NCBI GenBank assembly: GCA_002898395.1
Contig: BEHE01000003.1
Coordinates: 1 to 64,000 of the forward strand
Length of the DNA: 64,000 bases
Direction: 5' to 3'
DNA from: Candidatus Calditenuaceae archaeon HR02
Lineage (GTDB): Archaea > Thermoproteota > Nitrososphaeria_A > Caldarchaeales > Calditenuaceae
How positions within the stretch are numbered: the first letter of the stretch is position 1; each line of letters opens with the position of its first letter. Below the pieces are notes generated by a model. It made no database searches and had not been told where the DNA came from. It saw only the letters and a program-made list of their open reading frames with translations. Positions 1,039-61,539 of this stretch are shown piece after piece. The position numbers and the translations under genes are program-made.

Positions 1039-2424
1039 CTAGACGATGCCTCTTTCCCTATGTAGCTTTTCGAGGGCACCTCTCACCTCATCAACTTTAT
1101 CAGCACTTAATGGGTAAAACTTCATTGCGATTAGAAAACATGCCAGTGCTATGGTGAAAAGCGCGGCTGTCAGGACCCGCATGTTTAGTATAATGGTGGG
1201 GGAAGGTGGCGTGCTACCCGGGGTGAAACCGCTTAAGCTGAAGATAATGACCGTGCTAATCCCGGTCAGCCCCAGTGCGAATCTATCGATAAACGTTGTC
1301 ACTCCTAGATATATGCCTTCTCTCCTAAAACCTGTTTTTACCTCGTCTTCGTCAATAACGTCAGGGATTAGAATTTCTCTAACCAAGTTTACTCCTGAAT
1401 TTGTTATACCATAAAAAATCATTACTGCGGCCGCCTCTATAACATTGTCTGCCACCAACACAAACAACAAAACAAACACCGTCTCTAATGTATAAGAGGT
1501 GATCAACGTCTTCTTTGTTCCATACTTAATCCCTATTTTCCTCCAGAATGGGTAAAAAACTATCGCCATCAAGAGAATTGGGGCGCTTATAAAGGTTATG
1601 TCTGCAATGGTTCCGCCCAGAAAATACTCGACAAAAAATGGGCTTATTGCAGCGAGTAAACTCCAAGACCAGCTAATCATTAGAATGCAAAACGCAGCTG
1701 TAATAAAGGACCTGTTGGTGAGCGTAATCTTAAATGCTGAGATGATGGGAAGTGTTCCCGCCATACTGAATTCCTTCTTTTCTCTACTTCCTAGCAGGGA
1801 TAGTGCGAAGGAGCCGCCTGCGATACAGCCTAGAACCAACCCGGTCAAGGCCCATCCGTTTATGGTGCCAAACTCCCTGGTAAAGTGGTATATTATTTGC
1901 GGCGCTACGACAAAACCAATGATTAGCCCTATCATGGCAGCAACTTGTCTGTAGATAGATACCTCCAGCCTCTCCTTAAGGTCCTGGAACATCTCCGGGA
2001 ATAATGAATTCCAGCAGACAGTGACGAAAGTGTATAGAAGTTCAAAAACCCCGACAACAACGAGGAAATAGAGGAAAAGTCCAATGTCGCGCTGGCTCGA
2101 CAATGGTATATCTCTAATTGGTGGGAGCCAAATTAAGGTGAAGAATATTACCATTAGAGGGGTGCCAAAGAGTACATACGGTATTCTGCGCCCCCACCTT
2201 GTCCTAGTTCTATCTGAGATATACCCTGCTATAGGATCATTTATAGAGTTCCATATACCATAAGCAACTGAAAAACCAACTCCGACCAAGGCAGGATCTA
2301 GGCGGATCTCTTTTATGTAGAAATATATTAGAAAAGTCCCTATCATGTGGTAAATGAGTGCTTGGCCGAGGTTACCGGCGCCATAAGCTATTTTTCCTGC
2401 CCTACCCTTTAATCTGCCTATCAC
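1039..2424 (-). CDS. MFS sugar transporter, glycoside-pentoside-hexuronide (MelB-like) family
   Basis: About 12 hydrophobic segments; NDPIAGYISDRTRTRWGRRIPY and DVIDEDEVKTGFRREG motifs. Confidence 0.9.
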   Translation of the reverse strand: MIGRLKGRAGKIAYGAGNLGQALIYHMIGTFLIYFYIKEIRLDPALVGVGFSVAYGIWNSINDPIAGYISDRTRTRWGRRIPYVLFGTPLMVIFFTLIWLPPIRDIPLSSQRDIGLFLYFLVVVGVFELLYTFVTVCWNSLFPEMFQDLKERLEVSIYRQVAAMIGLIIGFVVAPQIIYHFTREFGTINGWALTGLVLGCIAGGSFALSLLGSREKKEFSMAGTLPIISAFKITLTNRSFITAAFCILMISWSWSLLAAISPFFVEYFLGGTIADITFISAPILLMAIVFYPFWRKIGIKYGTKKTLITSYTLETVFVLLFVLVADNVIEAAAVMIFYGITNSGVNLVREILIPDVIDEDEVKTGFRREGIYLGVTTFIDRFALGLTGISTVIIFSLSGFTPGSTPPSPTIILNMRVLTAALFTIALACFLIAMKFYPLSADKVDEVRGALEKLHRERGIV

Positions 2425-2458
2425 TGTATTGATACTTCTACCCTCTTATGTATATCTG

Positions 2459-3421
2459 TTAGACAGATGGGATGATTATGTCAAGTTTCTCAGTCTCTGC
2501 AACCCTTCGCCAGTACTGATATATGTTCTCCTGTATGGCTTTGATTACGTGCTCTTGCCTCTGCGGGTGGAAGAGGTGTTTGTATCTGCCTTGTGTTTTG
2601 AGGTATTCCTCTACCGGTTTTAAGACCCTTGGAGTATAGGTGTGTTTCACCTCCCCGTATATGGCCTCCTTAAGTGGCCAGACTCCACACTCGACGGCAA
2701 GTTTTGAGATCCTTATGCTCTCTGAGGTGTCGTGGTACCACCCCGTCGGGCAGGGGGTGAATGAGATAAACAGCTTGGGCCCCCTATACTTCGACGCGCT
2801 CTCAATCTTCCTAAGCATGTCAACAATATGGGACGGGGCTATGGTTGCTACGTAGGGTGGCTTATGGCTCCTCCAGATCTCGAAGAGGTCCTTCTTCGAC
2901 CCTGTATGTCCTTCTCGTTGAAGCTTTGTTGGCAGGGTGGTTGCGGTCGAGGCAGCGTATGGTGTGGCGCCGCTTTTCTGAAACCCTGTGTTGCTGTAGG
3001 CCTCATTATCATAGACAAGGTAATAGAAGTCTAGTCCCCTCTCGATGGCTCCAGATGTGCTTTGTAAGCCTATATCGTATGCGGCGCCGTCGCCTGTGAA
3101 GCAGACCACTTTGATATCCTCTTCTGGCTGAATTTTACCCTTCTCGATGAGTATGTCCAACGCGTCCCTGATCCCCTGGGCGCCTGCCGGTGCAGATGCG
3201 AAGGCTGTGTACATCCAGCTCGACTTAAAGGGGGTGTAGGGATAGACGTGTAAGAGTGTAAAGCATCCTGCGGCATTGACGAAAACTGCCCTTCCTTCTA
3301 GGGCTTTCAGGAACATTCTCAAGACGGGCGTGGCGCCGCAACCAGCGCATAATGGGTTGCCAGGCGCCAGATACTCTTCGAGCGGTACGTCCCTCAAGGT
3401 CTTAAATCTTGTCTCGCTCAT
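2459..3421 (-). CDS. porB: Pyruvate/2-oxoacid:ferredoxin oxidoreductase beta subunit
   Basis: CAGCG, TPP-binding GDG...DNEAYSNTG, PCPTGW. Start moved to ATG 3421. Confidence 0.9.
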   Translation of the reverse strand: MSETRFKTLRDVPLEEYLAPGNPLCAGCGATPVLRMFLKALEGRAVFVNAAGCFTLLHVYPYTPFKSSWMYTAFASAPAGAQGIRDALDILIEKGKIQPEEDIKVVCFTGDGAAYDIGLQSTSGAIERGLDFYYLVYDNEAYSNTGFQKSGATPYAASTATTLPTKLQREGHTGSKKDLFEIWRSHKPPYVATIAPSHIVDMLRKIESASKYRGPKLFISFTPCPTGWYHDTSESIRISKLAVECGVWPLKEAIYGEVKHTYTPRVLKPVEEYLKTQGRYKHLFHPQRQEHVIKAIQENIYQYWRRVAETEKLDIIIPSV

Positions 3422-3422
3422 T

Positions 3423-4694
3423 CTACCCCCCACCTAAACCTGCGAGACCCAAAGCCTTCCTGACGCCCTCCAACTCATCCTTCCTAAACAGGAATAGTGG
3501 TGTGCTCGGGTCCCTTCCCTCCGGATGCTGTAAGACATTGAAGACATATTCAAACTCTTCTAGTGAGATATATTTTCCCCCGAGCCCCCCAATTACTGAC
3601 ATCAATTTTTCGGGCCTGTTTCTCTGGTGATACAGTGCGCCTGCCACCTCTTGGTACATTATTCCCCCCATTCCAAGTGATATGTTCTGGTCTAGAACTG
3701 CTACCGCCTTCCTGTTTTTGAGGAGCTCAGCTAGCTGGGCCGACGGGAATGGCCTGTACATGACTATCTTAACCAAGCCGGCGGGGACACCCCTCTCCCT
3801 AAGCCTAAGAACAGCCCTCTTACCCATTGTCGTGAAGGAGTTACTCATTACAAGGACGTATTCAGCATCCTCGAGTTTAAACCCCTCAACAGGCTCGTGG
3901 ACCCTCCCCGTCAACTCCGCGTAGTGTTTTGACGCCTCCTCAAAGACCTCAATAGCCCTTCTCATAGATTCGTGGATATTGTGTTTAAAGTATGTGTAAA
4001 TGTGCCCACCCAGCACTGATGCGCCCTTGACGACCGGCCTACTGGCTCTGAATGGGAGGGTAGGGATATAGGGTGGTAGAAACTCCTCCACCGTTTCTTG
4101 GCTGGGGAGGTGGACTGGCTCCCGGGTGAAGGAGAGATAGAAGCCGTCCATGTTTACAATAGAGGGTAGTCTCACCCGTCTATCCTCCGAGACGCGGTAG
4201 GCGAGCAGGACTAGGTCTAATACATCCTGGCAGGTCTCTGCGTGGAACTGTAGGAAGCCGCTATCCCTCGCAGCTAGTACGTCATTATGGTCGGGCTCAA
4301 GGGTTACTGGAGCCGCAACACCTCGTGAGACATTCACTAGGACGAGCGGGGCTCTCCATCCAGAGATATTATAGAGCATCTCGAAACCGTAGAAGAGTCC
4401 TTGACTAGATGTGGCTGTGAAGACTCTAGCGCCTGTCAGGGAGGCTGTGCCGGCGGCCGTGAGCATGGAGTGCTCCGACTCCAGCTGCACCAGCTTAGCC
4501 TTCATAACTCCCTCACCTATCCATTTGGCGAGAGTCTCAATTATCTCGGTCTGCGGAGTTATAGGGTATGCAGGTATATAGTCAACGTCTGCTAGACGGG
4601 CAGCCCAGGCGGCCGCCACGTTACCTGTCAACATCTCAACCCTCATCATCTCGACAGCCGATACGTTGCTCGTCACCGTCTTTACGTCACGCAT
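3423..4694 (-). CDS. porA: Pyruvate/2-oxoacid:ferredoxin oxidoreductase alpha subunit
   Basis: AYPITPQTEI, ESEHS and TATSSQGL motifs. Confidence 0.92.
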   Translation of the reverse strand: MRDVKTVTSNVSAVEMMRVEMLTGNVAAAWAARLADVDYIPAYPITPQTEIIETLAKWIGEGVMKAKLVQLESEHSMLTAAGTASLTGARVFTATSSQGLFYGFEMLYNISGWRAPLVLVNVSRGVAAPVTLEPDHNDVLAARDSGFLQFHAETCQDVLDLVLLAYRVSEDRRVRLPSIVNMDGFYLSFTREPVHLPSQETVEEFLPPYIPTLPFRASRPVVKGASVLGGHIYTYFKHNIHESMRRAIEVFEEASKHYAELTGRVHEPVEGFKLEDAEYVLVMSNSFTTMGKRAVLRLRERGVPAGLVKIVMYRPFPSAQLAELLKNRKAVAVLDQNISLGMGGIMYQEVAGALYHQRNRPEKLMSVIGGLGGKYISLEEFEYVFNVLQHPEGRDPSTPLFLFRKDELEGVRKALGLAGLGGG

Positions 4695-8024: not shown

Positions 8025-8597
8025 ATGTATCCGCAATTTGTTATCGAGGCCATATATTTTGGAATCATATTAATTGTTATAGCGTTCATCGTGGTTTTTT
8101 ATGTTTTGACTCGGAGAGGCGGGCGGGAAGTGGAGGCTGACGGTGGGCATGTGAAGAAGGCCGGTATGGAGAGGGGTGAGAGGAATTGGATTCTTTTCCT
8201 ATTCTCGGTGGCGCTAATTGGCAACATATTATTCCTCTCACCAATCCTCCCTTCTGCCCGCTACACCTTCTACGAGGCTAAGCCAGCTATGACCATAACA
8301 ATACACATGAAGAACTATAGCTTTCATTTCCCCGAGACCCCGATAGTAATCCCCGCGAAAACTCCCGTGGAGTTTGTTGTGATATCTGAAGACTTGGTCT
8401 ATGGATTCGGGGTCTTCAGGAAGGATGGCTCGATGGTCTTTCAGATGCAGGTGGTCCCAAAGCCGTATGTCAACAGGATTGTCTGGGTCTTCGATGAGCC
8501 TGGAGCCTACGATGTACGGTCGACCGAGTATAGTGGTCCTCAGCACCCGTGGATGTTTGTTCGGGATGCTATAGTAGTGGAGGGTGGTAAGTCGTGA
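8025..8597 (+). CDS. Heme-copper oxidase subunit II, CuA-less
   Basis: Two TM helices plus a cupredoxin domain. DLVYGFG and STEYSGPQHPWM stand where H and CxExCGxxHxxM normally occur. Confidence 0.85.
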   Translation: MYPQFVIEAIYFGIILIVIAFIVVFYVLTRRGGREVEADGGHVKKAGMERGERNWILFLFSVALIGNILFLSPILPSARYTFYEAKPAMTITIHMKNYSFHFPETPIVIPAKTPVEFVVISEDLVYGFGVFRKDGSMVFQMQVVPKPYVNRIVWVFDEPGAYDVRSTEYSGPQHPWMFVRDAIVVEGGKS

Positions 8598-10177
8598 ACG
8601 AAAATGAAAGAAAAATACTTGTGTTAAGGTTTGTCGTAGTAGCGTTGATTTTCTTCGCGCTTGCAGGAATCGAAGGGATACTGATGAGGCTCAGAATTCT
8701 AAATCTCCTTACAGACCTCTTTGATGAGCGGCATTTCTACTCCATGATGACTGCACATCCATTCGTGGGCATCTATGGCTGGGCATACATGGCGGTCATG
8801 GGCGCATTTTACTTCTTGGTTCCCTACGTTATGAAGAGGGATGTCTACAGCAAGCGGGCCGCCTATGCGAGCTTCTGGCTAATGATCACTGGTCTGGCCA
8901 TTATATGGACGACCACATTTGCCACCCACTATGCCCCACTCTACACCCTATACTGGCCTATACCCGTCGCGGTAGAGCTGGCGGGCTGGAACCCGGCGGC
9001 AATATTCTCTTTTGGTATGGGTGTGGCGCTGGTTTTAGCTTCTGTACTGGTATTCTTCTTCAACATGTTTGCGACAATCTTCCTCCCCGCTAGGGCTGAG
9101 ATGGATGGGGGCGAAAAGGCAGGTGCTGGCTACGTCTTCAAGGAGCTCATGCTCACGGCATTCAACCTAGATAAACTCTGGGCCAAAGTGAAGGGTGTTC
9201 CACACTACACCGCAAGGGTCTTCAACTATCCAGTCTTCGTCGTCGCGGTGTTTAGAGGCTGCGTAGACACTACTCTAAACGCGTTCGTGATAGGGGGTGT
9301 TGGAGTGCTCTTAGCCCTTTTCGGTGCCTCCTACCTGTTTGTAGGCTCCTCCCCGAGCCACTCCCTGATCGACCCTCTAGTGTATAAGAACGTCTTCTGG
9401 TGGGGTCTCGACTTGATCGCCGATGGGAATGTCCTCATATTCACCGCCGGGACTTGGTATCTTCTCGTACCACTGCTTCTGAATAGGCAGCTCTACGGCG
9501 AACCCGTTGTAAGGACCGTCATTCTTGCGGACCTAGTTGTATCGCTACTTGTCTGGAACCATCACATGCTGGCAGATACGCCGCAGCCCTTGGCCCTCCA
9601 GATCCAGGGACAGATCTTCACTTGGGGAGAATTGATAACAATGGGGCTCACAATGTTCGCGGTGCTAGCTACTATCTGGAGGGCTAGGCCGGTCAAGTAC
9701 TCGGCTCCTCTCAAATTCGTCCTAGCGTCTATAACCGGGTATGCGGTGGGTGGCCTGGCTGGGATAATCCAGGCAAACTACGCCTCGAATCGGTTCTTCC
9801 ACAACACCCAGTGGGTTATCGGGATTCATGGTCATATTCAACTGCTCGTTGGACTTTCATTGACGATCTTCGCGGCAATTTATGCTCTGTTCCCGCTTCT
9901 TACGGGGAAAGCCCTCAGCGAGAGGCTCGCCGATGCCCATCTACTATTGATGGGTGTTGGAGGGGTTGTGATGGGCCTCGCTATGGGGTTGGCCGGTACA
10001 CAAGGCATGTTGAGGAGAACCCTCTATCCGATGGGCCTCGGAATATACGGGCCATACATGAGTGTGGCGCTTATCGGCGCCTTGATGATGGCCGCCGGGT
10101 TCGCCGTATTCCTAGTAAACGTCGTCAGGGCTGTTGGGCTTGGGGCGCTTGTGAAACTCTTCCTACCCCACAAATAA
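8594..10177 (+). CDS. Heme-copper oxidase superfamily subunit I, gNOR-like nitric oxide reductase
   Basis: H55, H323-H324, H412-x-H414 and the RR of GMLRR are retained; helix VI reads FWWGLDLIAD. GTGA overlap with subunit II. Confidence 0.8.
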   Translation: MNENERKILVLRFVVVALIFFALAGIEGILMRLRILNLLTDLFDERHFYSMMTAHPFVGIYGWAYMAVMGAFYFLVPYVMKRDVYSKRAAYASFWLMITGLAIIWTTTFATHYAPLYTLYWPIPVAVELAGWNPAAIFSFGMGVALVLASVLVFFFNMFATIFLPARAEMDGGEKAGAGYVFKELMLTAFNLDKLWAKVKGVPHYTARVFNYPVFVVAVFRGCVDTTLNAFVIGGVGVLLALFGASYLFVGSSPSHSLIDPLVYKNVFWWGLDLIADGNVLIFTAGTWYLLVPLLLNRQLYGEPVVRTVILADLVVSLLVWNHHMLADTPQPLALQIQGQIFTWGELITMGLTMFAVLATIWRARPVKYSAPLKFVLASITGYAVGGLAGIIQANYASNRFFHNTQWVIGIHGHIQLLVGLSLTIFAAIYALFPLLTGKALSERLADAHLLLMGVGGVVMGLAMGLAGTQGMLRRTLYPMGLGIYGPYMSVALIGALMMAAGFAVFLVNVVRAVGLGALVKLFLPHK

Positions 10178-33795: not shown

Positions 33796-34314
33796 TTAGA
33801 GCTCCATGAAAATAGTTATCGAGTCACCTGTCTTGGAATAAATTTTGAGGGGGCCTGTCTTTGATCCATCCATCCCTGGAGACCCCTGCGGCATTCCTGG
33901 GAGTGCGATGCCATCTACATCAGGCCGCTCCACTAGGAGATTCGAAATGGCCTCCAGCGGGACGTGCCCCTCGACGAAATAGCCATCCAAGACCGACGTG
34001 TGGCAGCTAAACAGCTGACTCGGTATCCCAAGCTTCTTCCTCATATCCAGCAGTCCCTGAGGATCCATCATCACTGTCTGCACCTGGACCCCCCTACTCT
34101 TCAAATAGCCTTCATATTTCCCACAACAGTCACAGAGAGAGGTTCTATACAGTTTCACCACAGGGTAAGCTATGCTCGTAAAGGTCGGTTTCTCACTGTT
34201 GGTGGAGCCCTGATTTAGGACGACCACAAGAGCTAATAATATTGTTATCACACTGGCCACGATGGAGTACAGCAGTATGTTACTCTTTTTATTGCCTTTT
34301 CTTTTTCTCACCAT
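33796..34314 (-). CDS. DUF411/CopG-like metal-binding protein, membrane-anchored
   Basis: CDCC, SCHT, EGHVP, PGMPQGSPGM. Confidence 0.88.
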   Translation of the reverse strand: MVRKRKGNKKSNILLYSIVASVITILLALVVVLNQGSTNSEKPTFTSIAYPVVKLYRTSLCDCCGKYEGYLKSRGVQVQTVMMDPQGLLDMRKKLGIPSQLFSCHTSVLDGYFVEGHVPLEAISNLLVERPDVDGIALPGMPQGSPGMDGSKTGPLKIYSKTGDSITIFMEL

Positions 34315-34317
34315 GTT

Positions 34318-34713
34318 TCACTCACCCTTTTCAGCCGTTGCAGCCTTCCAAGTTAGTGCAAGAATTCCTCCGACTATCCCTAGAAGAGACCCTACAATGA
34401 AGCCGCCGAACCCTAAAAGCCCGACTAGTGAGAACACGAGTATAACGGCTCCCCATGGTTGAGCTAGTTTAGGGTCGCTGAAGATAGCTAAGGCTCCAAT
34501 TATAATCACTGCCCCTGAGGCTATGCCTATAATCGCGGGAATCCACCACATCCAAGGCATCCACCACATCATCATTGGCATCATCATACCGCGCCATCCG
34601 CCCCAAGCTGGATAATATGACCAGGATAGAGCGATGGCGCCTCCTACTAGGAGCAACACTCCGGCGGCTAGAGAAAGTACGAAGGCGCCTAGCGGCTTAT
34701 CCCCCTGGCTCAA
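34318..34713 (-). CDS. Four-TM membrane protein with Met/Trp-rich loop
   Basis: GMMMPMMMWWMPWMWW loop; GGFIVGSLLGIVGGILAL. Confidence 0.75.
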   Translation of the reverse strand: MSQGDKPLGAFVLSLAAGVLLLVGGAIALSWSYYPAWGGWRGMMMPMMMWWMPWMWWIPAIIGIASGAVIIIGALAIFSDPKLAQPWGAVILVFSLVGLLGFGGFIVGSLLGIVGGILALTWKAATAEKGE

Positions 34714-35426
34714 TGCCCCTCACCAAGTTCCAACTCCCTGATAAACTCGCCATGCCATGAGTGATACCATATATCCCCCGTATAGCCGTTAACGCTGAGC
34801 ATTCCATGCACCTCGCCGTTTAGCTTATAGTCCATGGTGTAGTAGCCGTAAAACCTTGTAGGCTCCAATACTTCTACTATTCCACTACCGTATCTTCGGG
34901 ATAGGTAGTCTAGGGCTAGCCTCATAGCCTCATCTGAGCTAATAGGCATGTCAGCTGAAGGCTCTGTACTTTGCCCCATCATCGCATAATGCATCCCGTA
35001 CTTCCTATTCCACATCATGTTCGGCCCGGGCTCGGGAGAAACAACGCTTGTATACGGGTCGACAAGCAGTTCAAATGCACCGAGACTAGTATCACTCTCA
35101 ATAACAATGGCGTAGAAGTTATTCTCAAACTCCATTATCTCTTGTATTCTAGGTCCTGGACCGAACCTGGTTGAAATATAGTCCTCGACTAGCTCGAGCG
35201 CCCGTTCTATACCTATTCTAGCCCCTCCTGCGGATGGTGTTTGACCCCACATCCATGGGCACCCTCCCATCATCCAGCCACCTATGCCGTAATTAGGAGG
35301 CGCCACGTTCTGCGGATAGGTTGTTATTGGCCCCCTCCTCCAGAAATCATATACGGCTACGGCGCTACCAGCCACCACTACTGATACGGCGACTAGAGCT
35401 ACAGTGATTAAACCCGGCCTCACCAT
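34710..35426 (-). CDS. Exported Met/Gly-rich protein with two PepSY-like repeats
   Basis: N-terminal TM; GWMMGG, ELLVDPY, EPGPNMMWN, MLSVNGYTG..WYHSWHG. Confidence 0.75.
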   Translation of the reverse strand: MVRPGLITVALVAVSVVVAGSAVAVYDFWRRGPITTYPQNVAPPNYGIGGWMMGGCPWMWGQTPSAGGARIGIERALELVEDYISTRFGPGPRIQEIMEFENNFYAIVIESDTSLGAFELLVDPYTSVVSPEPGPNMMWNRKYGMHYAMMGQSTEPSADMPISSDEAMRLALDYLSRRYGSGIVEVLEPTRFYGYYTMDYKLNGEVHGMLSVNGYTGDIWYHSWHGEFIRELELGEGH

Positions 35427-39691: not shown

Positions 39692-39969
39692 ATCAGGAGG
39701 GGCTGGTACCCCTTGGAGAGGTTTTCAGAATATTCCGGGGAAGTGTCCTCTTAAAGGGTAGTGTTGTGCCGAGGCTAGGTGAAACAGTATATACCACCGA
39801 CGGCGAAGTCATAGGCTATGTCTCAGACATATTCGGCAAAATAAGCGGCTTCTATATTCTTGTAAGGCTAACCAGCGAGAAGATAGAGGTCGAGATAGGC
39901 GAGAAGCTCTATCTTCAAGGCAAGACAGGCCCTGTAAGCCCCTCAGGGAAAGCTAAGCCGCAGTTGTAA
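39688..39969 (+). CDS. gar1: H/ACA RNP protein Gar1
   Basis: PRLGETV...IGYVSDIFG; located after srp19. Confidence 0.8.
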   Translation: MNQEGLVPLGEVFRIFRGSVLLKGSVVPRLGETVYTTDGEVIGYVSDIFGKISGFYILVRLTSEKIEVEIGEKLYLQGKTGPVSPSGKAKPQL

Positions 39970-40399
39970 TTTTTCTAAGATTGTTGACAAGCTCCTTTAC
40001 CTTGGACTTGGCTACGTCCTGAATAATCCTTGCGCCTAGGCTTGCCGCGGCACCTCCTACAGTCACATCAGAGACCCATCTCACTTCAGAGAGTCTCTCC
40101 CCCTTTTCGACGATTTCTAAGTCTATTTTCAAATCGATTGTCGACTGCATGCCCGACCCCCTCCCCGCAAGGGTTACGTGGCTTGGCTCCCTCAAATCAA
40201 TGTATGTGAAGTCCATCTTTATGGTGCCGCTTAAAACTCCAAGCTTCACCTTAAACTCAGCCTCAAACCCCCGGTCTGACTTAATGTCTAGTTTTTTTAG
40301 ATCGGGTATTGCCTTACTGATCTGCTTCGGGTTCGTTACCAGCTGCCAGACTTTCTGAGCTGGAAGAGGAGTCTCAAAAGACCCTTCTAGCCTCATCAC
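39953..40399 (-). CDS. coxG: CoxG-like SRPBCC protein
   Basis: VWQLVTNP..I...IP and VGGAAASLGARII. Confidence 0.82.
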   Translation of the reverse strand: MMRLEGSFETPLPAQKVWQLVTNPKQISKAIPDLKKLDIKSDRGFEAEFKVKLGVLSGTIKMDFTYIDLREPSHVTLAGRGSGMQSTIDLKIDLEIVEKGERLSEVRWVSDVTVGGAAASLGARIIQDVAKSKVKELVNNLRKITTAA

Positions 40400-40409
40400 G
40401 ACCTAATGC

Positions 40410-40517
40410 TTCTGCCCCATAAATAAACCATGCCTGTTAACTTGGAATTACTTGACTCCGAACACCCAAACTAGCTTCCTAAGCATGCCCTTCACCATCT
40501 CTTTCTGCCCCATAAAT
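40410..40517. repeat. 15-bp exact direct repeat in the coxG/coxD divergent intergenic region
   Basis: TTCTGCCCCATAAAT at 40410-40424 and 40503-40517. Confidence 0.8.
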
Positions 40518-40593
40518 CTACCGAGAATATAAGATGAGGGAAAAGTTTTATTAATTCAGTCAACAAGAAAGATTTGGATGGTGTATCAATAGG

Positions 40594-41499
40594 TTGTCTA
40601 AAGCCGATTTTCTTGAGGGCCTAACGATAGATACTCTGATCGAAAGGCTCGAGAAGCACCTTTACGTCGCAGACAGAAGTCTAGCTACAGCGCTCTATCT
40701 CGCCATTAAGATGAATAAGCCCCTCCTCATTGAGGGTGAGCCCGGGTGCGGGAAGACAGAGATTGCCAAGGTGCTTGCAGAGGTTCTACAGACAGACCTG
40801 ATACGGCTCCAATGCTACGAGGGCCTCGACGCCTCCGACGCCATATATGAGTGGAACTATCCTAAGCAGCTCCTCTACATCAGGCTGCTGGAGAATAAGG
40901 GTGACTTAAGGGATGTAGAGTCGGAGATATTCAGCGAGAAGTTCCTTCTTAAGCGGCCGCTCTTAGCGGCCGTAATGCATGAGGGCGAGATTCCGCCGGT
41001 TCTCCTAATAGATGAGATTGATAGGGCCGACGAGGAGTTTGAGGGGTTCCTACTTGAATTTTTAGCCGAGTTTCAAGTTACAATACCTGAGATAGGGACT
41101 ATCAAGTGCAAGAAGCAGCCTATAGTCATACTTACCTCGAATAGGACTAGGGAGATTGGTGACGGCTTAAAGAGGCGCTGCCTCTACTATTATCAGTCTT
41201 ACCCGAGTAGGGAAAAGGAGTTAAAGATATTGAAGCTGAAGGTAAGGGGGCTGGACGAGTCTGTTATGGCGAAGATAGTCGACTTCGTGAATGTCGTTAG
41301 ACAGAGGCCTGAGATTTCAAAAAAGCCTGGTATCTCCGAGTCCCTCGACTGGGCAAACGCGCTGGCCAGGCTGTCAGCGAGGGATCTCAACAGAGATACT
41401 GTAATGGCTACTCTCTCTTGTATAATCAAGACTCAAGAGGACTTAATGAGAATGGATGTTGACTCAATCCTCTCCATGATAGGGGGTAAAAGCGGCTAA
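40594..41499 (+). CDS. coxD: CoxD-like MoxR AAA+ ATPase
   Basis: GEPGCGKT, RLQCYEGLD, LLIDEID, LKRRC. Confidence 0.88.
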   Translation: MSKADFLEGLTIDTLIERLEKHLYVADRSLATALYLAIKMNKPLLIEGEPGCGKTEIAKVLAEVLQTDLIRLQCYEGLDASDAIYEWNYPKQLLYIRLLENKGDLRDVESEIFSEKFLLKRPLLAAVMHEGEIPPVLLIDEIDRADEEFEGFLLEFLAEFQVTIPEIGTIKCKKQPIVILTSNRTREIGDGLKRRCLYYYQSYPSREKELKILKLKVRGLDESVMAKIVDFVNVVRQRPEISKKPGISESLDWANALARLSARDLNRDTVMATLSCIIKTQEDLMRMDVDSILSMIGGKSG

Positions 41500-41501
41500 A
41501 G

Positions 41502-42662
41502 ATGCATCTCTACGACTTCGTCTGCGGGCTGGCGAGAAGCTTAAGGATGCAGGGTCTAAAAGTTGGCGTCTCAGAGTCTATCGACGCATGCCAGGCCATC
41601 GGCCTTGTGATTGATCGGGGCTTCGAAGATATACTGACCGCGATACGCGTTACAATGGTGAAAGACCCCTCAAAGTATCATCTCATCGAGCAGGCTCTCG
41701 AGTATGTTGCCTCGGGAGGCGGCGCGTCGGGGGAAGGAGAGTCTGGTGAGGGGGGTAGTGAAGGCTCTGAGTATGCTCTTCAGCCGATGGGTATGTCTAG
41801 AGGCTCGGGGCAAGACCAGAATAGCGCCTCGACTCAGTTCGTCATGTATAGTCCTGCTGAGTCGCTGCACAGGAGGAGCCTAAGGCCAATAGACGTTCAT
41901 GCCCTGAAGACCGGTAAAAGGATAATCAAGAGGATGCGCCGGAGGCTAGCTGTCCTTCCCGGTAGGCGCTCAACCGCCTCAAAGAAGGGCGATATAGCGT
42001 TTGCAAAGACCATCAGGCACAGTTTTAGAACTTTTGGAGAGATAATGGCGCTGAGAAAATCCACCAAGATTCTCTCACGCGCGAGGCTGGTGGCTCTTAT
42101 CGACATAAGCGGCTCAATGGACACGTATACGGACTGGCTTGTCAGGGCCATGTATCTATTCAGCAGGTTCACTCGTCGCGTGGAGGTGTTCGTGTTCAGT
42201 ACTAGGTTGAGGCGCATAACGGATCTTCTCGCAATAACAGACTTCGACGAGATAAGGAGGAGATTATCAAGCGAGGTTGACTTGTGGGGGAGTGGTACAC
42301 GTATAGGCTACAGCCTGAAAATATTCATAGACAATTATGGCAACATGCTGAACAGGAGCTGGATAGCGGTTATAGTTAGTGATGGCTGGGATACAGGTGA
42401 ACCCGAATTGCTGAAGTGGAGCATGAGCAATCTGAGGCAAAGAGTAGGACGGATAATATGGCTGAACCCACACACAGATAAGCCAAACTTCAGGCCCCTC
42501 ACAATAGGTATGACGACAGCCCTCCCCTACATCGACGTTTTGGCAGGCATGAGCGTGCTCGAGGACTATAGCTCATTTCTGAGGTTCTTCGGAAAGTCGA
42601 TTAAACCATTGAGGCGTGGTGAAAGCCTTGTCAGACGCCAGCCCGAGAGACTGGCGTTATAG
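41502..42662 (+). CDS. coxE: CoxE-like VWA domain protein
   Basis: DISGSM (MIDAS), GTRIG, SDGWDTG, WLNP. Confidence 0.88.
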   Translation: MHLYDFVCGLARSLRMQGLKVGVSESIDACQAIGLVIDRGFEDILTAIRVTMVKDPSKYHLIEQALEYVASGGGASGEGESGEGGSEGSEYALQPMGMSRGSGQDQNSASTQFVMYSPAESLHRRSLRPIDVHALKTGKRIIKRMRRRLAVLPGRRSTASKKGDIAFAKTIRHSFRTFGEIMALRKSTKILSRARLVALIDISGSMDTYTDWLVRAMYLFSRFTRRVEVFVFSTRLRRITDLLAITDFDEIRRRLSSEVDLWGSGTRIGYSLKIFIDNYGNMLNRSWIAVIVSDGWDTGEPELLKWSMSNLRQRVGRIIWLNPHTDKPNFRPLTIGMTTALPYIDVLAGMSVLEDYSSFLRFFGKSIKPLRRGESLVRRQPERLAL

Positions 42663-43923
42663 GAGGATATCAAAATTCAGCGAGGTTGAAGAAGTCCTAG
42701 CCGAGGTCACGCAACGTATAGCTGTGAAACTGGGTACGGTTAACTTGAGGCCTAGGTATGCCGTGGGCCATGTATTGGCGGAGGATGTTTTTGCGCGCTT
42801 CGATTTACCGCCTTTCCACATGTCTCATGTCGATGGGTTCGCGGCCCGGAGCTCAGACCTTACTGGTGCTTCTGAGGACGCGCCTGTAGGGCTTGTTGTC
42901 GAAGGACATATTGGGCCCGGAGAGCGTGGGGGGAGGATAGGGCCGGGCAGTACTTTTAGAATTCACACTGGGGGGTATCTCCCCGAAGGCGCTGACACGG
43001 TTATCCCGCAGGAGGATGTCTTCACCGACGGCTCGAAGATCTATGTCCTTCGCCCATATCGCCCATTTGAGAATGTGGTCCCAGCTGGCAGTGACGTGCG
43101 TCAGGGCCAGTTATTGGCTAGGAGGGGGGATGTCTTGTCAGCGGCTAAGGCCTCCCTATTTGAGACGCTCAGGATATACGAGGTTGGTGTTCGTGAGGCT
43201 CCTAGAGTCACAGTACTCTCCTTCGGGGACGAACTCACCGATAATCCCGCCGAGGCTGAGAGCGGAAGAAAGATTCTGAATACACACGCGGTATTAGTTT
43301 CACAAATGGCTCGAGCCCTTGGGTGTGAGCTTATAGGAAACGCTATTGTTCCAGATAGGCTGGAGGCTGTTGGGGCAGCCATAGATCAGGGGATAAAAAA
43401 TTCTCACTGCGTCTTAACAATTGGTGGGTCAAGTGTGGGTGACATCGACTTGGTTGGTGCTGAGCTTGGTAAGCGTGCGGAGCTTTTCATACAGGGACTT
43501 AAGTTACAGCCTGGCAGGGTGGGTGGGGTAGCGTTGATAGGGGGTAAGCCCTTAATAATGCTTCCAGGTCTCATACACTCTACTGTCAATGTCTTTAACT
43601 ATCTTGCGGCGCCAGTATTGCTGCATATGCTTGAAGCTAGCGTGGAGCAATTCGTCATAAAGGTAGATGCATATTTGGCGGAAACTGTAGAGTTTCAGCG
43701 CTGGATCGACTTCAGAAGGATTGTCTGGGTCACTCTAAAGCGGCGGGATGGTGAAGGGTATAAGGCACACCCAAATGTTGCAGACGCCTCTAACATCTCG
43801 TCAATCGCCTATTCACATGGATTCATAGAAGTGCCACCCAATAAGCCGGTCGTCGCTAAGGGAGAAAGAGTGGTGGTTAGGATTCCACTCTGGATTACGC
43901 GAAGCATCAAGGAGCCTGTCTAA
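42616..43923 (+). CDS. moeA: Molybdopterin molybdotransferase
   Basis: SHVDGFA, TGGYLPEGADTVIPQE, GDEL, GGSSVG. Confidence 0.9.
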   Translation: MVKALSDASPRDWRYRRISKFSEVEEVLAEVTQRIAVKLGTVNLRPRYAVGHVLAEDVFARFDLPPFHMSHVDGFAARSSDLTGASEDAPVGLVVEGHIGPGERGGRIGPGSTFRIHTGGYLPEGADTVIPQEDVFTDGSKIYVLRPYRPFENVVPAGSDVRQGQLLARRGDVLSAAKASLFETLRIYEVGVREAPRVTVLSFGDELTDNPAEAESGRKILNTHAVLVSQMARALGCELIGNAIVPDRLEAVGAAIDQGIKNSHCVLTIGGSSVGDIDLVGAELGKRAELFIQGLKLQPGRVGGVALIGGKPLIMLPGLIHSTVNVFNYLAAPVLLHMLEASVEQFVIKVDAYLAETVEFQRWIDFRRIVWVTLKRRDGEGYKAHPNVADASNISSIAYSHGFIEVPPNKPVVAKGERVVVRIPLWITRSIKEPV

Positions 43924-60045: not shown

Positions 60046-61539
60046 GTGTGCGCGAAGTATTCTCTGGGCTCTGAGTTTAAGTTTGGCTTTTCAACTGTAG
60101 GCGTGCAGCATGAGATGGGTGTCCCGGGCTCTGAGTTCAGCTCCGACTGGGTTGCCTGGCTTCATGACCCGGAGAACATACTAGCTGGGATTGTGAGCGG
60201 CGACGCTCCCGAGGATGGGCCTGGATACTGGAGGCTTTTCAGAGAGGACCATGAAAGAGCGCGGAGCATCGGAATGGATGCGGCTTGGATAACGGTCGAG
60301 TGGGCGAGGATATTCCCAAGGCCGACCTTTGATGTGAAGGTACCTATGGAGAAGGCTGGCAGAGTCATTACCCGGGCCTTAGTTGAGAGGAAGCATTTAG
60401 AGGATCTTGAGAGGATAGCCGACATGCAAGCGCTCAACCACTACAGGGAGATACTCTCTGACTGGAGGAGCAGGGGCGGCCTCGTAATCGCAAATCTCTT
60501 CCACTGGTCCCTACCACTCTGGCTCCACGACCCTATCAAGGTGAGGAAGCTTGGGCCTGACCGGGCGCCATCCGGCTGGATTGATGAGAGGTGCGTCACA
60601 GAGTTCGCCAAGCTCTCAGCATTTCTAGCCCACCACCTAGATGACGTGGTTGACATGTGGTATACGATGAACGAGCCACTTGTCATCGCCAACGCGGGCT
60701 ATCTCCAAGTAAACTCTGGATTCCCACCCGGTTATCTCGACCTAGAGACCTTTATGACTGTCATCAAAAATCTCGAGATGGCGCATGCAGTCGCCTACGA
60801 CGCTGTAAAGAGCTATTCTAAGAAGCCTGTCGGCGTGGTGGAGTCGGTGGCCCACTGAACCCCCTTAACAACCGAAGACCAGGCCGCGGCAGATAGGGGC
60901 TTCGAATTTAACATCGCGATATATGATGCGGCTGTGAGGGGGCTTGTAGGTGGAGAGGTTGTTGACGAGGCTCGAAATAGGATTGACTGGATTGGTCTCA
61001 ACTACTATTCCAGAATGGTTGTTAAGGCTGAGAGTAGGTCGCCCACAGGGTTTAGGATTGTTAGCGGCTATGGCTATGGCTGCCAGCCTAGAGCATACTC
61101 GCTCGATGGGAGGCCAACAAGTGATTTCGGTTGGGAGGTTTACCCAGAGGGTCTCTACCACGTGGCTAAAAGGCTCTACGGCCGCTATCGATTACCAATC
61201 TACGTGACTGAGAATGGGTGTGCGGACTCTGAAGACCGTCTAAGACCAAGGTTCATTGTCTCACACCTTTACCAGATATACCTCGCCAAGAGAGAGGGTG
61301 TGGATTTGCGGGGATACTTTCACTGGAATCTTACCGACAACCTGGAGTGGGCGAAGGGGTATAGCATGAGGTTTGGGCTATTTGAGGTTGACATGTCTTC
61401 TAAGAAAAGATTCGCTAGGCCTAGCGCTTTGGTCTTCAGGGAAATAGCCACCTCCAAGGCGATACCTGAAGAGTTTGAGAACATCACTCATCCCCCGTCG
61501 AGAAGAAATAGATGCCCCGTTCACACAGATATTTGTTAG
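60046..61539 (+). pseudogene. GH1 beta-glycosidase (LacS/BgaS-like) interrupted by a single in-frame TGA at 60856-60858
   Basis: ORFs 60046-60858 and 60934-61539 share a frame; catalytic TMNEP and VTENG and DNLEWAKG are intact. Confidence 0.88.

Follow-up and report, generated by a model that had tools for sequence, protein, structure and literature searches.

Introduction

Subunits I and II of the heme-copper oxidoreductases (HCO) form a textbook pair, and automatic pipelines label a gene pair of this kind coxA/coxB or "cytochrome c oxidase". The question raised by the locus described here is whether that label can hold for an archaeal pair in which residues of both the catalytic site and the CuA centre have been replaced. 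The locus lies in Candidatus Calditenuaceae archaeon HR02 (GCA_002898395.1), and the window, meaning the whole stretch of DNA that was analysed, comprises positions 1 to 64,000 of contig BEHE01000003.1 (64,000 nucleotides). The matter bears on surveys of microbial respiration, in which coxAB has served as the mark of an aerobe among Nitrososphaeria and Caldarchaeales (PMC10833072, PMC10547907). An initial annotation had proposed a gNOR-like NO reductase with a subunit II devoid of CuA. The reading favoured here, with somewhat better than even confidence, is that the operon encodes a two-subunit, membrane-bound HCO of the gNOR type, with Asp at two active-site positions (hereafter D/D), which in this (hyper)thermophilic, Caldarchaeales/Aigarchaeota-like archaeon would most likely reduce NO rather than O2.

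The Gene Pair

Both genes, and all features given below, lie on the + strand. The subunit II gene (8025..8597) encodes 190 amino acids, with two N-terminal membrane helices and a cupredoxin domain lacking the CuA ligands, and the subunit I gene (8594..10177) encodes the 12-helix HCO catalytic subunit of 527 amino acids (Pfam COX1, 2e-64). Read directly from the DNA, the two reading frames overlap by 4 nt (GTGA, 8594..8597), the GTG start of subunit I running into the TGA stop of subunit II, an arrangement that suggests translational coupling within one operon. Scores against dedicated oxidase models are low, NCBIfam CtaD giving 136.8 bits for subunit I (cut-off 670.75) and Pfam COX2 giving 19 bits for subunit II, below its 22-bit cut-off, with NCBIfam CoxB at 33.8 bits. 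In the ESM Atlas, subunit I retrieved generic COX1 clusters only, the identical protein being present there letter for letter, a result that does not help to place it. Scans of the window for tRNA genes and Rfam families found nothing.

Active Site of Subunit I

The histidines that bind the hemes, and two of those that bind the active-site metal, are retained, as the initial annotation had stated. Alignment to solved oxidases identifies H55 of helix II (codon 8756..8758) as the low-spin heme ligand, H323-H324 of helix VII (9560..9565) as the pair of active-site metal ligands, and H412-G-H414 of helix X (9827..9835) as carrying the ligands of the high-spin (H412) and low-spin (H414) hemes.

Helix VI is where the site departs from that of the oxidases. 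The motif FWWGLDLIAD occupies residues 268-277 (nt 9395-9424), in which D273 (9410..9412) stands at the position of the CuB histidine (ba3 H233) and D277 (9422..9424) at that of the cross-linked tyrosine (ba3 Y237), so that the earlier claim of Asp at both positions is borne out by a gapless alignment. In HMMER, IDPLVYKNVFWWGLDLIAD pairs with VDPLVARTLFWWTGHPI(A/V)Y of ba3 with no gap; both printed alignments are of ba3 point-mutant entries, with residue numbers following 1ehk, under which D273 corresponds to H233, D277 to Y237 and H323/H324 to H282/H283. The wider helix VI-VII signature (DPLV...FWW...; HHxxAD; Y289 = Y248) is likewise shared with solved ba3 without gaps. A-family alignments require gaps at helix VI, so that the position of the His or Tyr falls to L272 or A276, and they supply no His or Tyr either. 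The two aspartates, at i and i+4, lie on one helix face.

The initial annotation had also raised the possibility of an alternative His or Tyr at the CuB site, and none is found. There is no His between subunit I residues 256 and 323, and within helices VI-VII only one Tyr, Y289 (9458..9460), is invariant; it aligns with ba3 Y248, three turns further down the helix from the active site. In ba3, Y248 has a role in the proton path.

Conservation of these positions is strict. Across the 30 sequences of alignment A1, which share 49-94% identity with the window protein and have a mean column identity of 60%, D273, D277, Y289 and all five His are invariant, and the motif WWGLD[LM][IV]ADG is found in 39 of 39 archaeal sequences covering helix VI, at identities down to 48%. 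About 130 columns of subunit I, the heme ligands and both Asp among them, are invariant in sequences down to 49% identity. A structure model of subunit I reached a pLDDT of 79.7 and a pTM of 0.84, with pLDDT falling to about 50 near residues 270-280, 320-330 and 397-407; models were built without cofactors. Its PDB fold matches (TM 0.71-0.79) include bo3 and aa3-600, and all 50 matches listed are A-family subunit I chains, which confirms the fold without discriminating between families.

Subunit II and the Loss of CuA

Subunit II contains no Cys at all. It reads D-L-V-Y126-G-F-G and, further on, S166-T-E-Y-S170-G-P-Q-H174-P-W-M177, and alignment of its profile to ba3 subunit II places Y126 on H114, S166 on C149, S170 on C153, H174 on H157 and M177 on M160. 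Sequence and profile alignment thus agree with the earlier description of a motif S-T-E-Y-S-G-x-x-H-x-x-M in which both CuA Cys have become Ser (8520..8555) and the upstream His has become Tyr (8400..8402). Relative to ba3, therefore, the CuA ligands H114/C149/C153 are replaced by Tyr/Ser/Ser, alongside the change of H233 and Y237 to Asp in subunit I. Of the clade's 37 subunit II genes, 36 carry Tyr at the Y126 position and the loop R-S-T-E-Y-S-G.

The protein nevertheless remains recognisably close to the ba3 subunit. The best match of its profile (A2) is Thermus ba3 subunit II (1ehk_B, 44.6 bits, E 9.5e-11), its model (pLDDT 83.3) shows two helices and a beta sandwich, and its ten best PDB fold matches are without exception ba3 subunit II or its CuA domain, making this the nearest solved relative by both profile and fold. 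Both enzymes are small and consist of two subunits. Subunit II of ba3 has one membrane helix, and two are predicted here.

The exception among the 37 genes, at locus L025, has His at the Y126 position and a loop reading R-C-T-E-Y-C-G, and so keeps the full CuA ligand set (H/C/C), a finding reported here for the first time. Also new is the observation that the Ser codons at both former Cys positions belong to incompatible families across the clade, TCN and AGY, which suggests that CuA was lost by Cys-to-Ser replacement repeatedly and independently.

Relationship to Known Families

A phylogeny with references from the other heme-copper families, which the initial annotation had proposed, places the D/D clade on the B-family side and outside the A family. 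The references in the tree (25 rows, careful search), from the A, B and C families and of sNOR-like and eNOR-like type, came from a plasmid collection, in which no D/D protein was found. The D/D clade is supported at 100/99 and groups with the B family, one eNOR-like row and the sNOR-like rows, the A family and CcoN being split off (85/81); the A-family clade (100/99) excludes it.

The earlier statement that the scaffold derives from the B family stands in part. In its favour are the tree split (85/81), the proximity of subunit II to ba3 and the gapless helix VI-VII alignment; against it, the profile of subunit I favours the A family, with 104 bits against aa3-600 and about 65 against ba3, A-family structures giving the highest scores, and the fold matches listed for its model are all A-family. 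A B-family derivation of subunit I may thus be regarded as no more than moderately supported.

Several named families can be set aside. A B-family, ba3-type O2 reductase would carry the helix VI His-Tyr (GHPxVY) and CuA in subunit II, and both are missing; the haloarchaeal b(o/a)3 references have FWYFGHPVVY and C-x-E-x-C. The A-family O2 reductases are set apart by GHPEVY and by their own clade (100/99). Quinol oxidases of that family (Bacillus subtilis aa3-600, Escherichia coli bo3) do resemble the present enzyme in having a subunit II without CuA, but they keep GHPEVY with its His-Tyr cofactor, align to helix VI only with gaps and fall in the separate A clade.

The sNOR-like operons on megaplasmids of Thermomicrobium roseum (L046) and Ruegeria pomeroyi (L050) and the eNOR-like gene of Defluviimonas (L054) lie on the same side of the tree and have likewise lost the tyrosine. 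Subunit II shows 29% identity to the CuA-bearing counterpart in the Thermomicrobium operon (E 8e-21), and subunit I has the stretch HH(M/L)xxDxxQPLxL in common with it. Yet these genes keep the helix VI His, have their tyrosine replaced by Asn (GHTLVN, GHVFIN), as in sNOR/bNOR, or by Gln (GHSSQQ), as in eNOR, retain CuA and form clades of their own. On these grounds sNOR/bNOR and eNOR are excluded. L046 and L050 adjoin formate/nitrite transporter genes, whereas L054 does not.

With cNOR/qNOR the likeness is one of proposed chemistry, namely a heme and non-heme-iron site with carboxylate ligation and, for qNOR, a quinol donor. These enzymes are kin to the C family, with three His and a Glu at FeB, a cytochrome c subunit or a fused N-terminal domain, and no cupredoxin subunit, whereas the partner here is a cupredoxin. 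NorB gave only a marginal partial match to subunit I (E 7e-4 over about 90 residues, single sequence) and is absent among the profile matches listed, and cNOR/qNOR was rejected.

The family that remains is gNOR (Hemp and Gennis, 2008; Sievert et al., 2008; Murali et al., 2024, PMC11214002). Section 7 of the last source describes it as a relative of the B family in which Asp replaces one active-site His and the cupredoxin lacks the CuA residues, with quinol as the likely donor and conserved residues able to bind it; the active-site residue is also given as D in Table A4 of PMC8756737, after Hemp and Gennis (2008). The present operon shares with gNOR the Asp in place of the CuB/FeB His (D273, invariant in 39/39), D at the cross-linked Tyr position (D277) with the other heme and metal His kept, and a cupredoxin subunit II without CuA ligands (36/37 genes), from which L025, with its complete ligand set, is the exception within the clade, a case absent from the family description. 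The match is to the published description of gNOR, whose reference members come from Sulfurimonas, Sulfurovum, Persephonella and Ca. Methylomirabilis (Damo_1118-1119). On that footing the operon would add a further archaeal representative to the gNOR-type family already described. The invariant D273/D277, the ba3-like cupredoxin without CuA, the tree position and the published traits together uphold the description of the pair as gNOR-like, CuA-less and not an O2 reductase.

One element of the initial annotation needs correcting, namely its view of gNOR as known mainly from bacteria. The D/D clade has archaeal hosts and not Campylobacterota, Aquificota or NC10; section 7 and Table 1 of PMC11214002 report the family from both Bacteria and Archaea, in 156 GTDB genomes, and an archaeal gNOR is therefore to be expected rather than a surprise. 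The portions of the Aigarchaeota, gNOR and heme-copper literature searched nowhere describe the present clade as a NOR; Datasets S1-S7 of PMC11214002 may list such archaea.

Proposed Function and Electron Donor

A site of this composition would not support four-electron reduction of O2, because the His-Tyr cofactor is missing, and for the same reason the gene pair is not to be counted as an O2 reductase. Two His with one or two carboxylates would instead be expected to bind a non-heme iron (FeB) beside the high-spin heme, at which two NO could be reduced to N2O (2 NO + 2 e- + 2 H+ -> N2O + H2O). Since subunit II has no CuA, electrons would probably be drawn from membrane quinol, entering near helices I/II at E27 and H47 and passing to the low-spin heme. 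NO reduction, quinol use and non-heme iron are all put forward by inference from the sequence, the function of gNOR being itself a proposal by the authors who described the family.

The candidate quinol site was located by alignment with the menaquinol oxidase aa3-600 of B. subtilis (6koc_A), whose D74 and H94 are quinol-site residues. E27 (8672..8674), invariant in A1, aligns with D74, and H47 (8732..8734), which 90% or more of the A1 sequences keep, aligns with H94. Two of the four aa3-600 quinol positions are thereby matched, L23 and S50 sitting on R70 and E97.

Genomic Context

The window itself offers no partner in nitrogen-oxide metabolism, a Pfam scan of its 68 ORFs finding no nir, nor or nos domains; the earlier statement that it holds no nitrite reductase is thereby confirmed. 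Nor were nirK/nirS domains detected in 213 neighbouring ORFs of related loci (150, 25 and 38 scanned), a scan that covered all but about 40 of the 215 chosen representatives. As no nitrite reductase lies nearby, the physiological role would be NO detoxification or a modular step of denitrification.

Two loci are more suggestive. Downstream of the operon in L020 come two HTH_10 regulators together with nosY, nosF, nosD, nosL and nosZ, the NosZ scoring 802.7 bits against TIGR04246 (cut-off 625); this is the only one of 41 sources with nos genes beside the operon. Locus L009 belongs to Pelearchaeum maunauluense, for which PMC10547907 lists nirK and coxA/coxB with "no NOR identified", and it carries a D/D subunit I gene at 76% identity. 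Taken as a whole, the argument from gene context for a nitrogen-oxide role is thin.

The HTH_10 regulator is the only recurrent neighbour (18/40 sources) and is absent from the window. It may be linked to the haloarchaeal denitrification regulator NarO. Its Cys pattern is too weakly conserved for it to be called a sensor, a single Cys being shared by 90% or more of 19 sequences. A gene for heme o synthase lies directly downstream of the operon in L038, and iron-handling genes occur near a few loci, FeoB with FeoA-DtxR in L030 and ferritin with Fur in L031/L032.

Taken together with the distribution of the gene, which was found in Caldarchaeales, Bathyarchaeia and Geothermarchaeota-like archaea, these observations allow a more tentative proposal. 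The D/D enzymes may be the "missing" NOR of those members of the three groups that have nirK or nosZ and no recognised NOR, and the active site may have been rebuilt before the repeated loss of CuA. The order of events is proposed because L025, with H/C/C, would represent a stage at which the site had changed while CuA was still present. Both parts of this proposal are judged possible rather than probable.

Alternative Explanations

The alternative that survives best, although it is given a rather small chance, is that the rebuilt site serves other chemistry, be it NO dismutation, reduction of another oxidant (N2O, nitrite, peroxide or a chalcogen/sulfur species) or scavenging that is linked to quinol but not to energy conservation. 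The literature searched, as far as its accessible portions go, contains no assay, purification, metal content or heme type for any gNOR, and a nitrite reductase adjoins the operon neither in the window nor in the scanned flanks. Many holders come from lineages of sulfidic or anoxic habitats, gNORs being mostly from sulfidic environments according to PMC11214002, and the iron genes near L030 and L031/L032 would suit any iron enzyme. NO reduction is nonetheless favoured by the combination of a heme with a non-heme metal under carboxylate ligation, which is the architecture of cNOR/qNOR, by the nosZDFYL cluster adjoining the operon in L020, and by the L009 organism, recorded with nirK and without a recognised NOR (PMC10547907).

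Marginally less probable still is that the clade is a separate archaeal family which converged, from an independent B-like origin, on the D/D site and CuA loss of the bacterial gNOR; it would still reduce NO or carry out some comparable two-electron chemistry. The genome contig scan returned archaeal D/D sequences only, and the tree was built without reference gNORs. A 2019 preprint (10.1101/592808) attributes to gNOR a His-to-Glu change of a heme ligand, which this clade lacks, all three heme His (H55, H412 and H414) being invariant in it; this is the main discrepancy with the gNOR literature, although we regard the change as a trait of uncertain standing and do not count it as defining. Convergence also has a precedent in the superfamily, in the active sites of sNOR/bNOR and nNOR/cNOR (Murali et al., PMC11214002, section 7). 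The contig scan, however, used 8-residue peptides of the query itself as patterns, and the absence of bacteria from it is uninformative because such peptides cannot reach distant bacterial relatives. Moreover, the gNOR description in the peer-reviewed PMC11214002, in its section on the family, mentions no Glu heme ligand and places gNOR in Archaea, and of the four published features of gNOR the two Asp and the CuA-less cupredoxin are present here, kinship with the B family being moderately supported. Membership of the gNOR-type family is accordingly preferred to convergence.

That the pair is after all a genuine O2-reducing terminal oxidase with an alternative His or Tyr, as the coxA/coxB annotation implies, is improbable. 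It would accord with the Pfam COX1 match, with the nearest solved structures being oxidases, and with the C family, where the tyrosine sits on another helix (PMC11214002), but it has to contend with a helix VI devoid of His, with Y289, the only invariant Tyr, lying well below the site, with D273 and D277 conserved in 39/39 sequences and with NCBIfam oxidase models far under their cut-offs. Some holders of the gene, in addition, belong to lineages described as anaerobic (Geocrenenecus and Benthortus of the Wolframiiraptoraceae; PMC9246946). A decaying or non-catalytic remnant, which the disappearance of the canonical catalytic residues and of the CuA site might suggest, is more improbable again given that neither ORF is disrupted and the two are coupled in translation, that some 130 subunit I columns including the heme ligands and both Asp are invariant, and that even the former CuA loop is kept in 36/37 genes.

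Implications

If the gNOR-type reading is correct, coxAB-based surveys misread the D/D lineages as aerobic respirers. The enzyme would provide a candidate NO-reducing step for thermophilic archaea that possess nirK or nosZ and no NOR, and would bear on how N2O is budgeted in hot springs, at vents and in the subsurface. Being compact, made of two subunits and from a (hyper)thermophile, it is a good candidate for the first gNOR structure and metal analysis. The CuA-retaining L025 and the codon evidence give a testable order of events, and the clade would then constitute a natural series in which a heme-copper oxidoreductase changes both its substrate and its electron donor.

Operon Organization and Active Site

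The operon consists of two overlapping forward-strand ORFs, subunit II (8025-8597, 190 aa) and subunit I (8594-10177, 527 aa), in which the TGA stop of the former is overlapped by the GTG start of the latter, as read from the sequence. For subunit I the Pfam COX1 match stands at 2e-64, subunit II gives a weak COX2 match (19 bits, cut-off 22), and NCBI oxidase models fall far under their cut-offs (e.g. CtaD, 136.8 vs 670.75). Window G+C is 52%, and a scan of the window for tRNA and Rfam families found none. The IVYWREL fraction over 40 window ORFs (0.4555) indicates a hyperthermophile by the Zeldovich relation, reportedly an indicator of growth temperature.

Residues 259-329 of subunit I align by HMMER with the Thermus thermophilus B-family oxidase ba3 without gaps across helix VI, where IDPLVYKNVFWWGLDLIAD lies over ba3 VDPLVARTLFWWTGHPI(V/A)Y, both printed ba3 alignments being to point mutants. 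The equivalences are D273 = H233, D277 = Y237, Y289 = Y248 and H323/H324 = H282/H283, bearing out the initial annotation, which had named every residue at its correct position in the translated ORFs and had read both the CuB His and the cross-linked Tyr as Asp. A-family alignments are gapped at helix VI and supply no His or Tyr there either. The predicted model of subunit I (pLDDT 79.7, pTM 0.84) matches the fold of A-family subunit I chains, bo3 and aa3-600 included (TM 0.71-0.79).

In subunit II, profile alignment places Y126, S166, S170, H174 and M177 on ba3 H114, C149, C153, H157 and M160, in agreement with the earlier reading of both CuA Cys as Ser and of the upstream His as Tyr. The structure predicted for subunit II (pLDDT 83.3) combines a pair of membrane helices with a beta sandwich, and its ten best PDB fold matches all come from ba3, either the CuA domain or subunit II. 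Profile scores rank ba3 subunit II (44.6 bits) over bo3 CyoA (35) and A-family subunits (<=27).

Distribution and Phylogenetic Placement

One scan of species-representative genomes returned 41 loci, its patterns being 8-residue peptides of the query itself, which puts distant bacterial relatives beyond its reach. Archaeal loci number 39 (94-48% identity, two being the halves of a gene split between contigs) and are recorded as Caldarchaeales/Aigarchaeota, Bathyarchaeia, Geothermarchaeota-like MAGs and one Methanomassiliicoccales bin; Bacillaceae A-family oxidases with GHPEVY make up the remaining two. WWGLD[LM][IV]ADG occurs in all 39 archaeal sequences spanning helix VI (window counted), and D273, D277, H55, H323, H324, H412 and H414 are invariant in a 30-sequence alignment with 60% mean column identity. 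Subunit II lies directly upstream of subunit I in 37 cases, the remaining three loci ending at contig edges, and 36/37 carry D-[LV]-x-Y-G-F-G and R-S-T-E-Y-S-G. The protein with Asp at both sites (D/D) is thus a conserved family rather than an accident.

In a subunit I profile search against structures, A-family proteins score best (aa3-600, 104 bits), followed by ba3 (~65) and cbb3 (~45), and NO reductases (NORs) are absent from the matches listed. The tree (25 rows, 513 columns) combined 13 of the 40 D/D sequences, picked to span the clade, with references from annotated plasmids: haloarchaeal and bacterial A-family genes, two haloarchaeal b(o/a)3 oxidases with FWYFGHPVVY, Sinorhizobium CcoN, the CuA-keeping operons of Thermomicrobium roseum (GHTLVN, L046:1619-4541) and Ruegeria pomeroyi (GHVFIN, L050:1358-5866), and a Defluviimonas gene (GHSSQQ, L054:1723-4934). 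The last three are labelled sNOR-like, sNOR-like and eNOR-like because of Asn or Gln at the Tyr position and the entry of "Silicibacter" under sNOR in PMC8756737 (Table A4). Formate/nitrite transporter genes adjoin L046 and L050, as does an Rrf2 regulator in R. pomeroyi.

In this phylogeny, covering A, B, C, sNOR-like and eNOR-like rows, the D/D sequences form a separate clade (UFBoot/SH-aLRT 100/99). The A family (100/99), the B family with the eNOR-like row (100/99) and the sNOR-like rows (100/100) are likewise recovered. CcoN and A separate from B, eNOR-like, sNOR-like and D/D at 85/81, and D/D joins the sNOR-like rows at only 64/57. The D/D clade is thus distinct, and its position on the B-family side is moderately supported. 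The T. roseum operon also shares HH(M/L)xxDxxQPLxL with the window in subunit I, and its subunit II is 29% identical to that of the window (E 8e-21).

Presence and Loss of CuA

Full CuA ligands (His, Cys, Cys, His, Met) occur in one locus alone among the relatives seen, the Thermofilaceae MAG contig L025 (operon 1713-3824; subunit II 1713-2288, subunit I 2295-3824). Its subunit II reads D-V-T-H-G-F-G and R-C-T-E-Y-C-G-F-R-H-S-E-M, its subunit I is D/D, and apart from CuA it is an ordinary clade member, nested within the subunit I tree (98/98). A molybdopterin oxidoreductase gene lies 1.7 kb downstream, its best match (Fdh-alpha) being under cut-off.

Codons at window 8520-8534 and at the homologous positions of the related loci L001-L039 were compared across 37 subunit II genes. 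The first former Cys position carries TCN Ser codons in 29 genes and AGY in the seven that make up the subclade around L025; the second carries AGY in 27 and TCN in nine, which form the deepest subclade. L025 has TGC at both, and CAT at the CuA His position, where 36 genes have TAY. No single step converts TCN into AGY or back, and each is one step from TGY, a pattern that points to repeated Cys-to-Ser replacement, which probably occurred more than once and later than formation of the D/D site. The CuA of L025 may represent either retention, with parallel losses elsewhere, or a three-step reversion.

Genomic Context

The window operon neighbours genes for pyruvate:ferredoxin oxidoreductase, ADP-forming acetyl-CoA synthetase, PAC2 and a UbiE-like methyltransferase. 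A domain scan of the ORFs in the 64-kb window found no nir, nor or nos genes, consistent with the earlier remark that nitrite reductase is missing there. The sole recurrent operon neighbour, in 18/40 sources, is a regulator of ~200 aa that carries an HTH_10 domain at its C-terminus and a C-x2-C motif in its N-terminal domain (e.g. L007:5360-6028, L010:8742-9359, L031:8712-9293); tblastn found none in the window.

Genes for nos adjoin the operon in 1/41 sources, Ca. Geothermarchaeum rappei (L020:11580-21316), where two HTH_10 regulators, nosY, nosF, nosD, an unknown ORF, nosL and nosZ follow. Its NosZ (TIGR04246, 802.7 bits, cut-off 625) is of clade II (Sec-type model) with a weak TAT-signal match as well, and the cluster includes a cupredoxin and a NapH/NosR-like Fer4_5 membrane protein. 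Heme o synthase is encoded directly downstream of the operon in L038. No nirK or nirS domains were found in 213 flanking ORFs of related loci, a scan that leaves about 40 further representatives outside. In the accessible text of PMC10547907, Pelearchaeum maunauluense, the organism of L009, has coxA/coxB and nirK and no NOR, and in that of PMC10833072 coxAB is taken as a sign of aerobic Nitrososphaeria.

In a few loci the operon also has iron-related or gas-sensing genes nearby: FeoB and FeoA-DtxR (L030:12572-15287), ferritin and Fur (L031/L032, about 12.7-13.5 kb), a DUF438-hemerythrin-PAS protein (L035:12575-13855) and a hemerythrin (L017:2873-3451). An archaeal MAG contig encodes a strong Arf-family small GTPase match (L031:154-1119, minus strand; PF00025, 3e-51).

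Elsewhere in the window, grouped CoxG, AAA (CoxD-like) ATPase, CoxE-like VWA protein and MoeA genes (39953-43923) are aerobic-type CO dehydrogenase maturation genes; CoxLMS structural genes were not found in the window. Adjacent plus-strand ORFs (60046-60858 and 60934-61539) match the N-terminal-middle part (profile positions 95-219) and the C-terminal part (284-451) of GH family 1, and make up a split or frameshifted beta-glycosidase gene. At 33796-35426 (minus strand), a DUF411 protein, presumably of a metal-binding family, adjoins DUF6114 and an unannotated 238-aa ORF.

Proposed Function and Relation to gNOR

The window enzyme lacks CuA, has a pair of heme sites, and at its second metal site presents two His plus one or two Asp from a single helix face. 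Four-electron O2 chemistry would be excluded by such a site, and non-heme iron beside the high-spin heme may instead reduce 2 NO to N2O, with quinol as the likely electron source. In alignment to the Bacillus subtilis A-family menaquinol oxidase aa3-600, E27 and H47 correspond to D74 and H94, and L23 and S50 fall on R70 and E97, these four being quinol-site residues of aa3-600.

The accessible portion of Murali et al. 2024 (PMC11214002) describes gNOR as related to the B family, as the first heme-copper oxidoreductase family in which an active-site His has given way to another residue, Asp, and as having a cupredoxin subunit without CuA residues and quinol as probable donor. It reports gNOR in Bacteria and Archaea, mostly of sulfidic environments (156 GTDB genomes), and presents NO reduction as proposed, not demonstrated. 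In PMC8756737 (Table A4, based on Hemp & Gennis 2008) the gNOR active-site residue is given as D vs Y in O2 reductases. The window protein has the Asp in place of His, the D at the Tyr position and the cupredoxin subunit without CuA residues; its B-family kinship is moderately supported and quinol would be its donor. This is a match to published descriptions, the plasmid records having yielded no reference gNOR. However, a His-to-Glu heme-ligand change mentioned for gNOR in the available part of a 2019 preprint (10.1101/592808) is absent from the window protein, and is not repeated in the accessible portion of PMC11214002.

The shared features support the gNOR-like, CuA-less assignment of the initial annotation, as judged from sequence, and the operon would be an archaeal member of a known, biochemically uncharacterised kind, so that its novelty is modest. 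New here are the CuA-keeping L025 and the Ser codon pattern, and the side findings are useful for annotation, for context and for the evolution of CuA loss.
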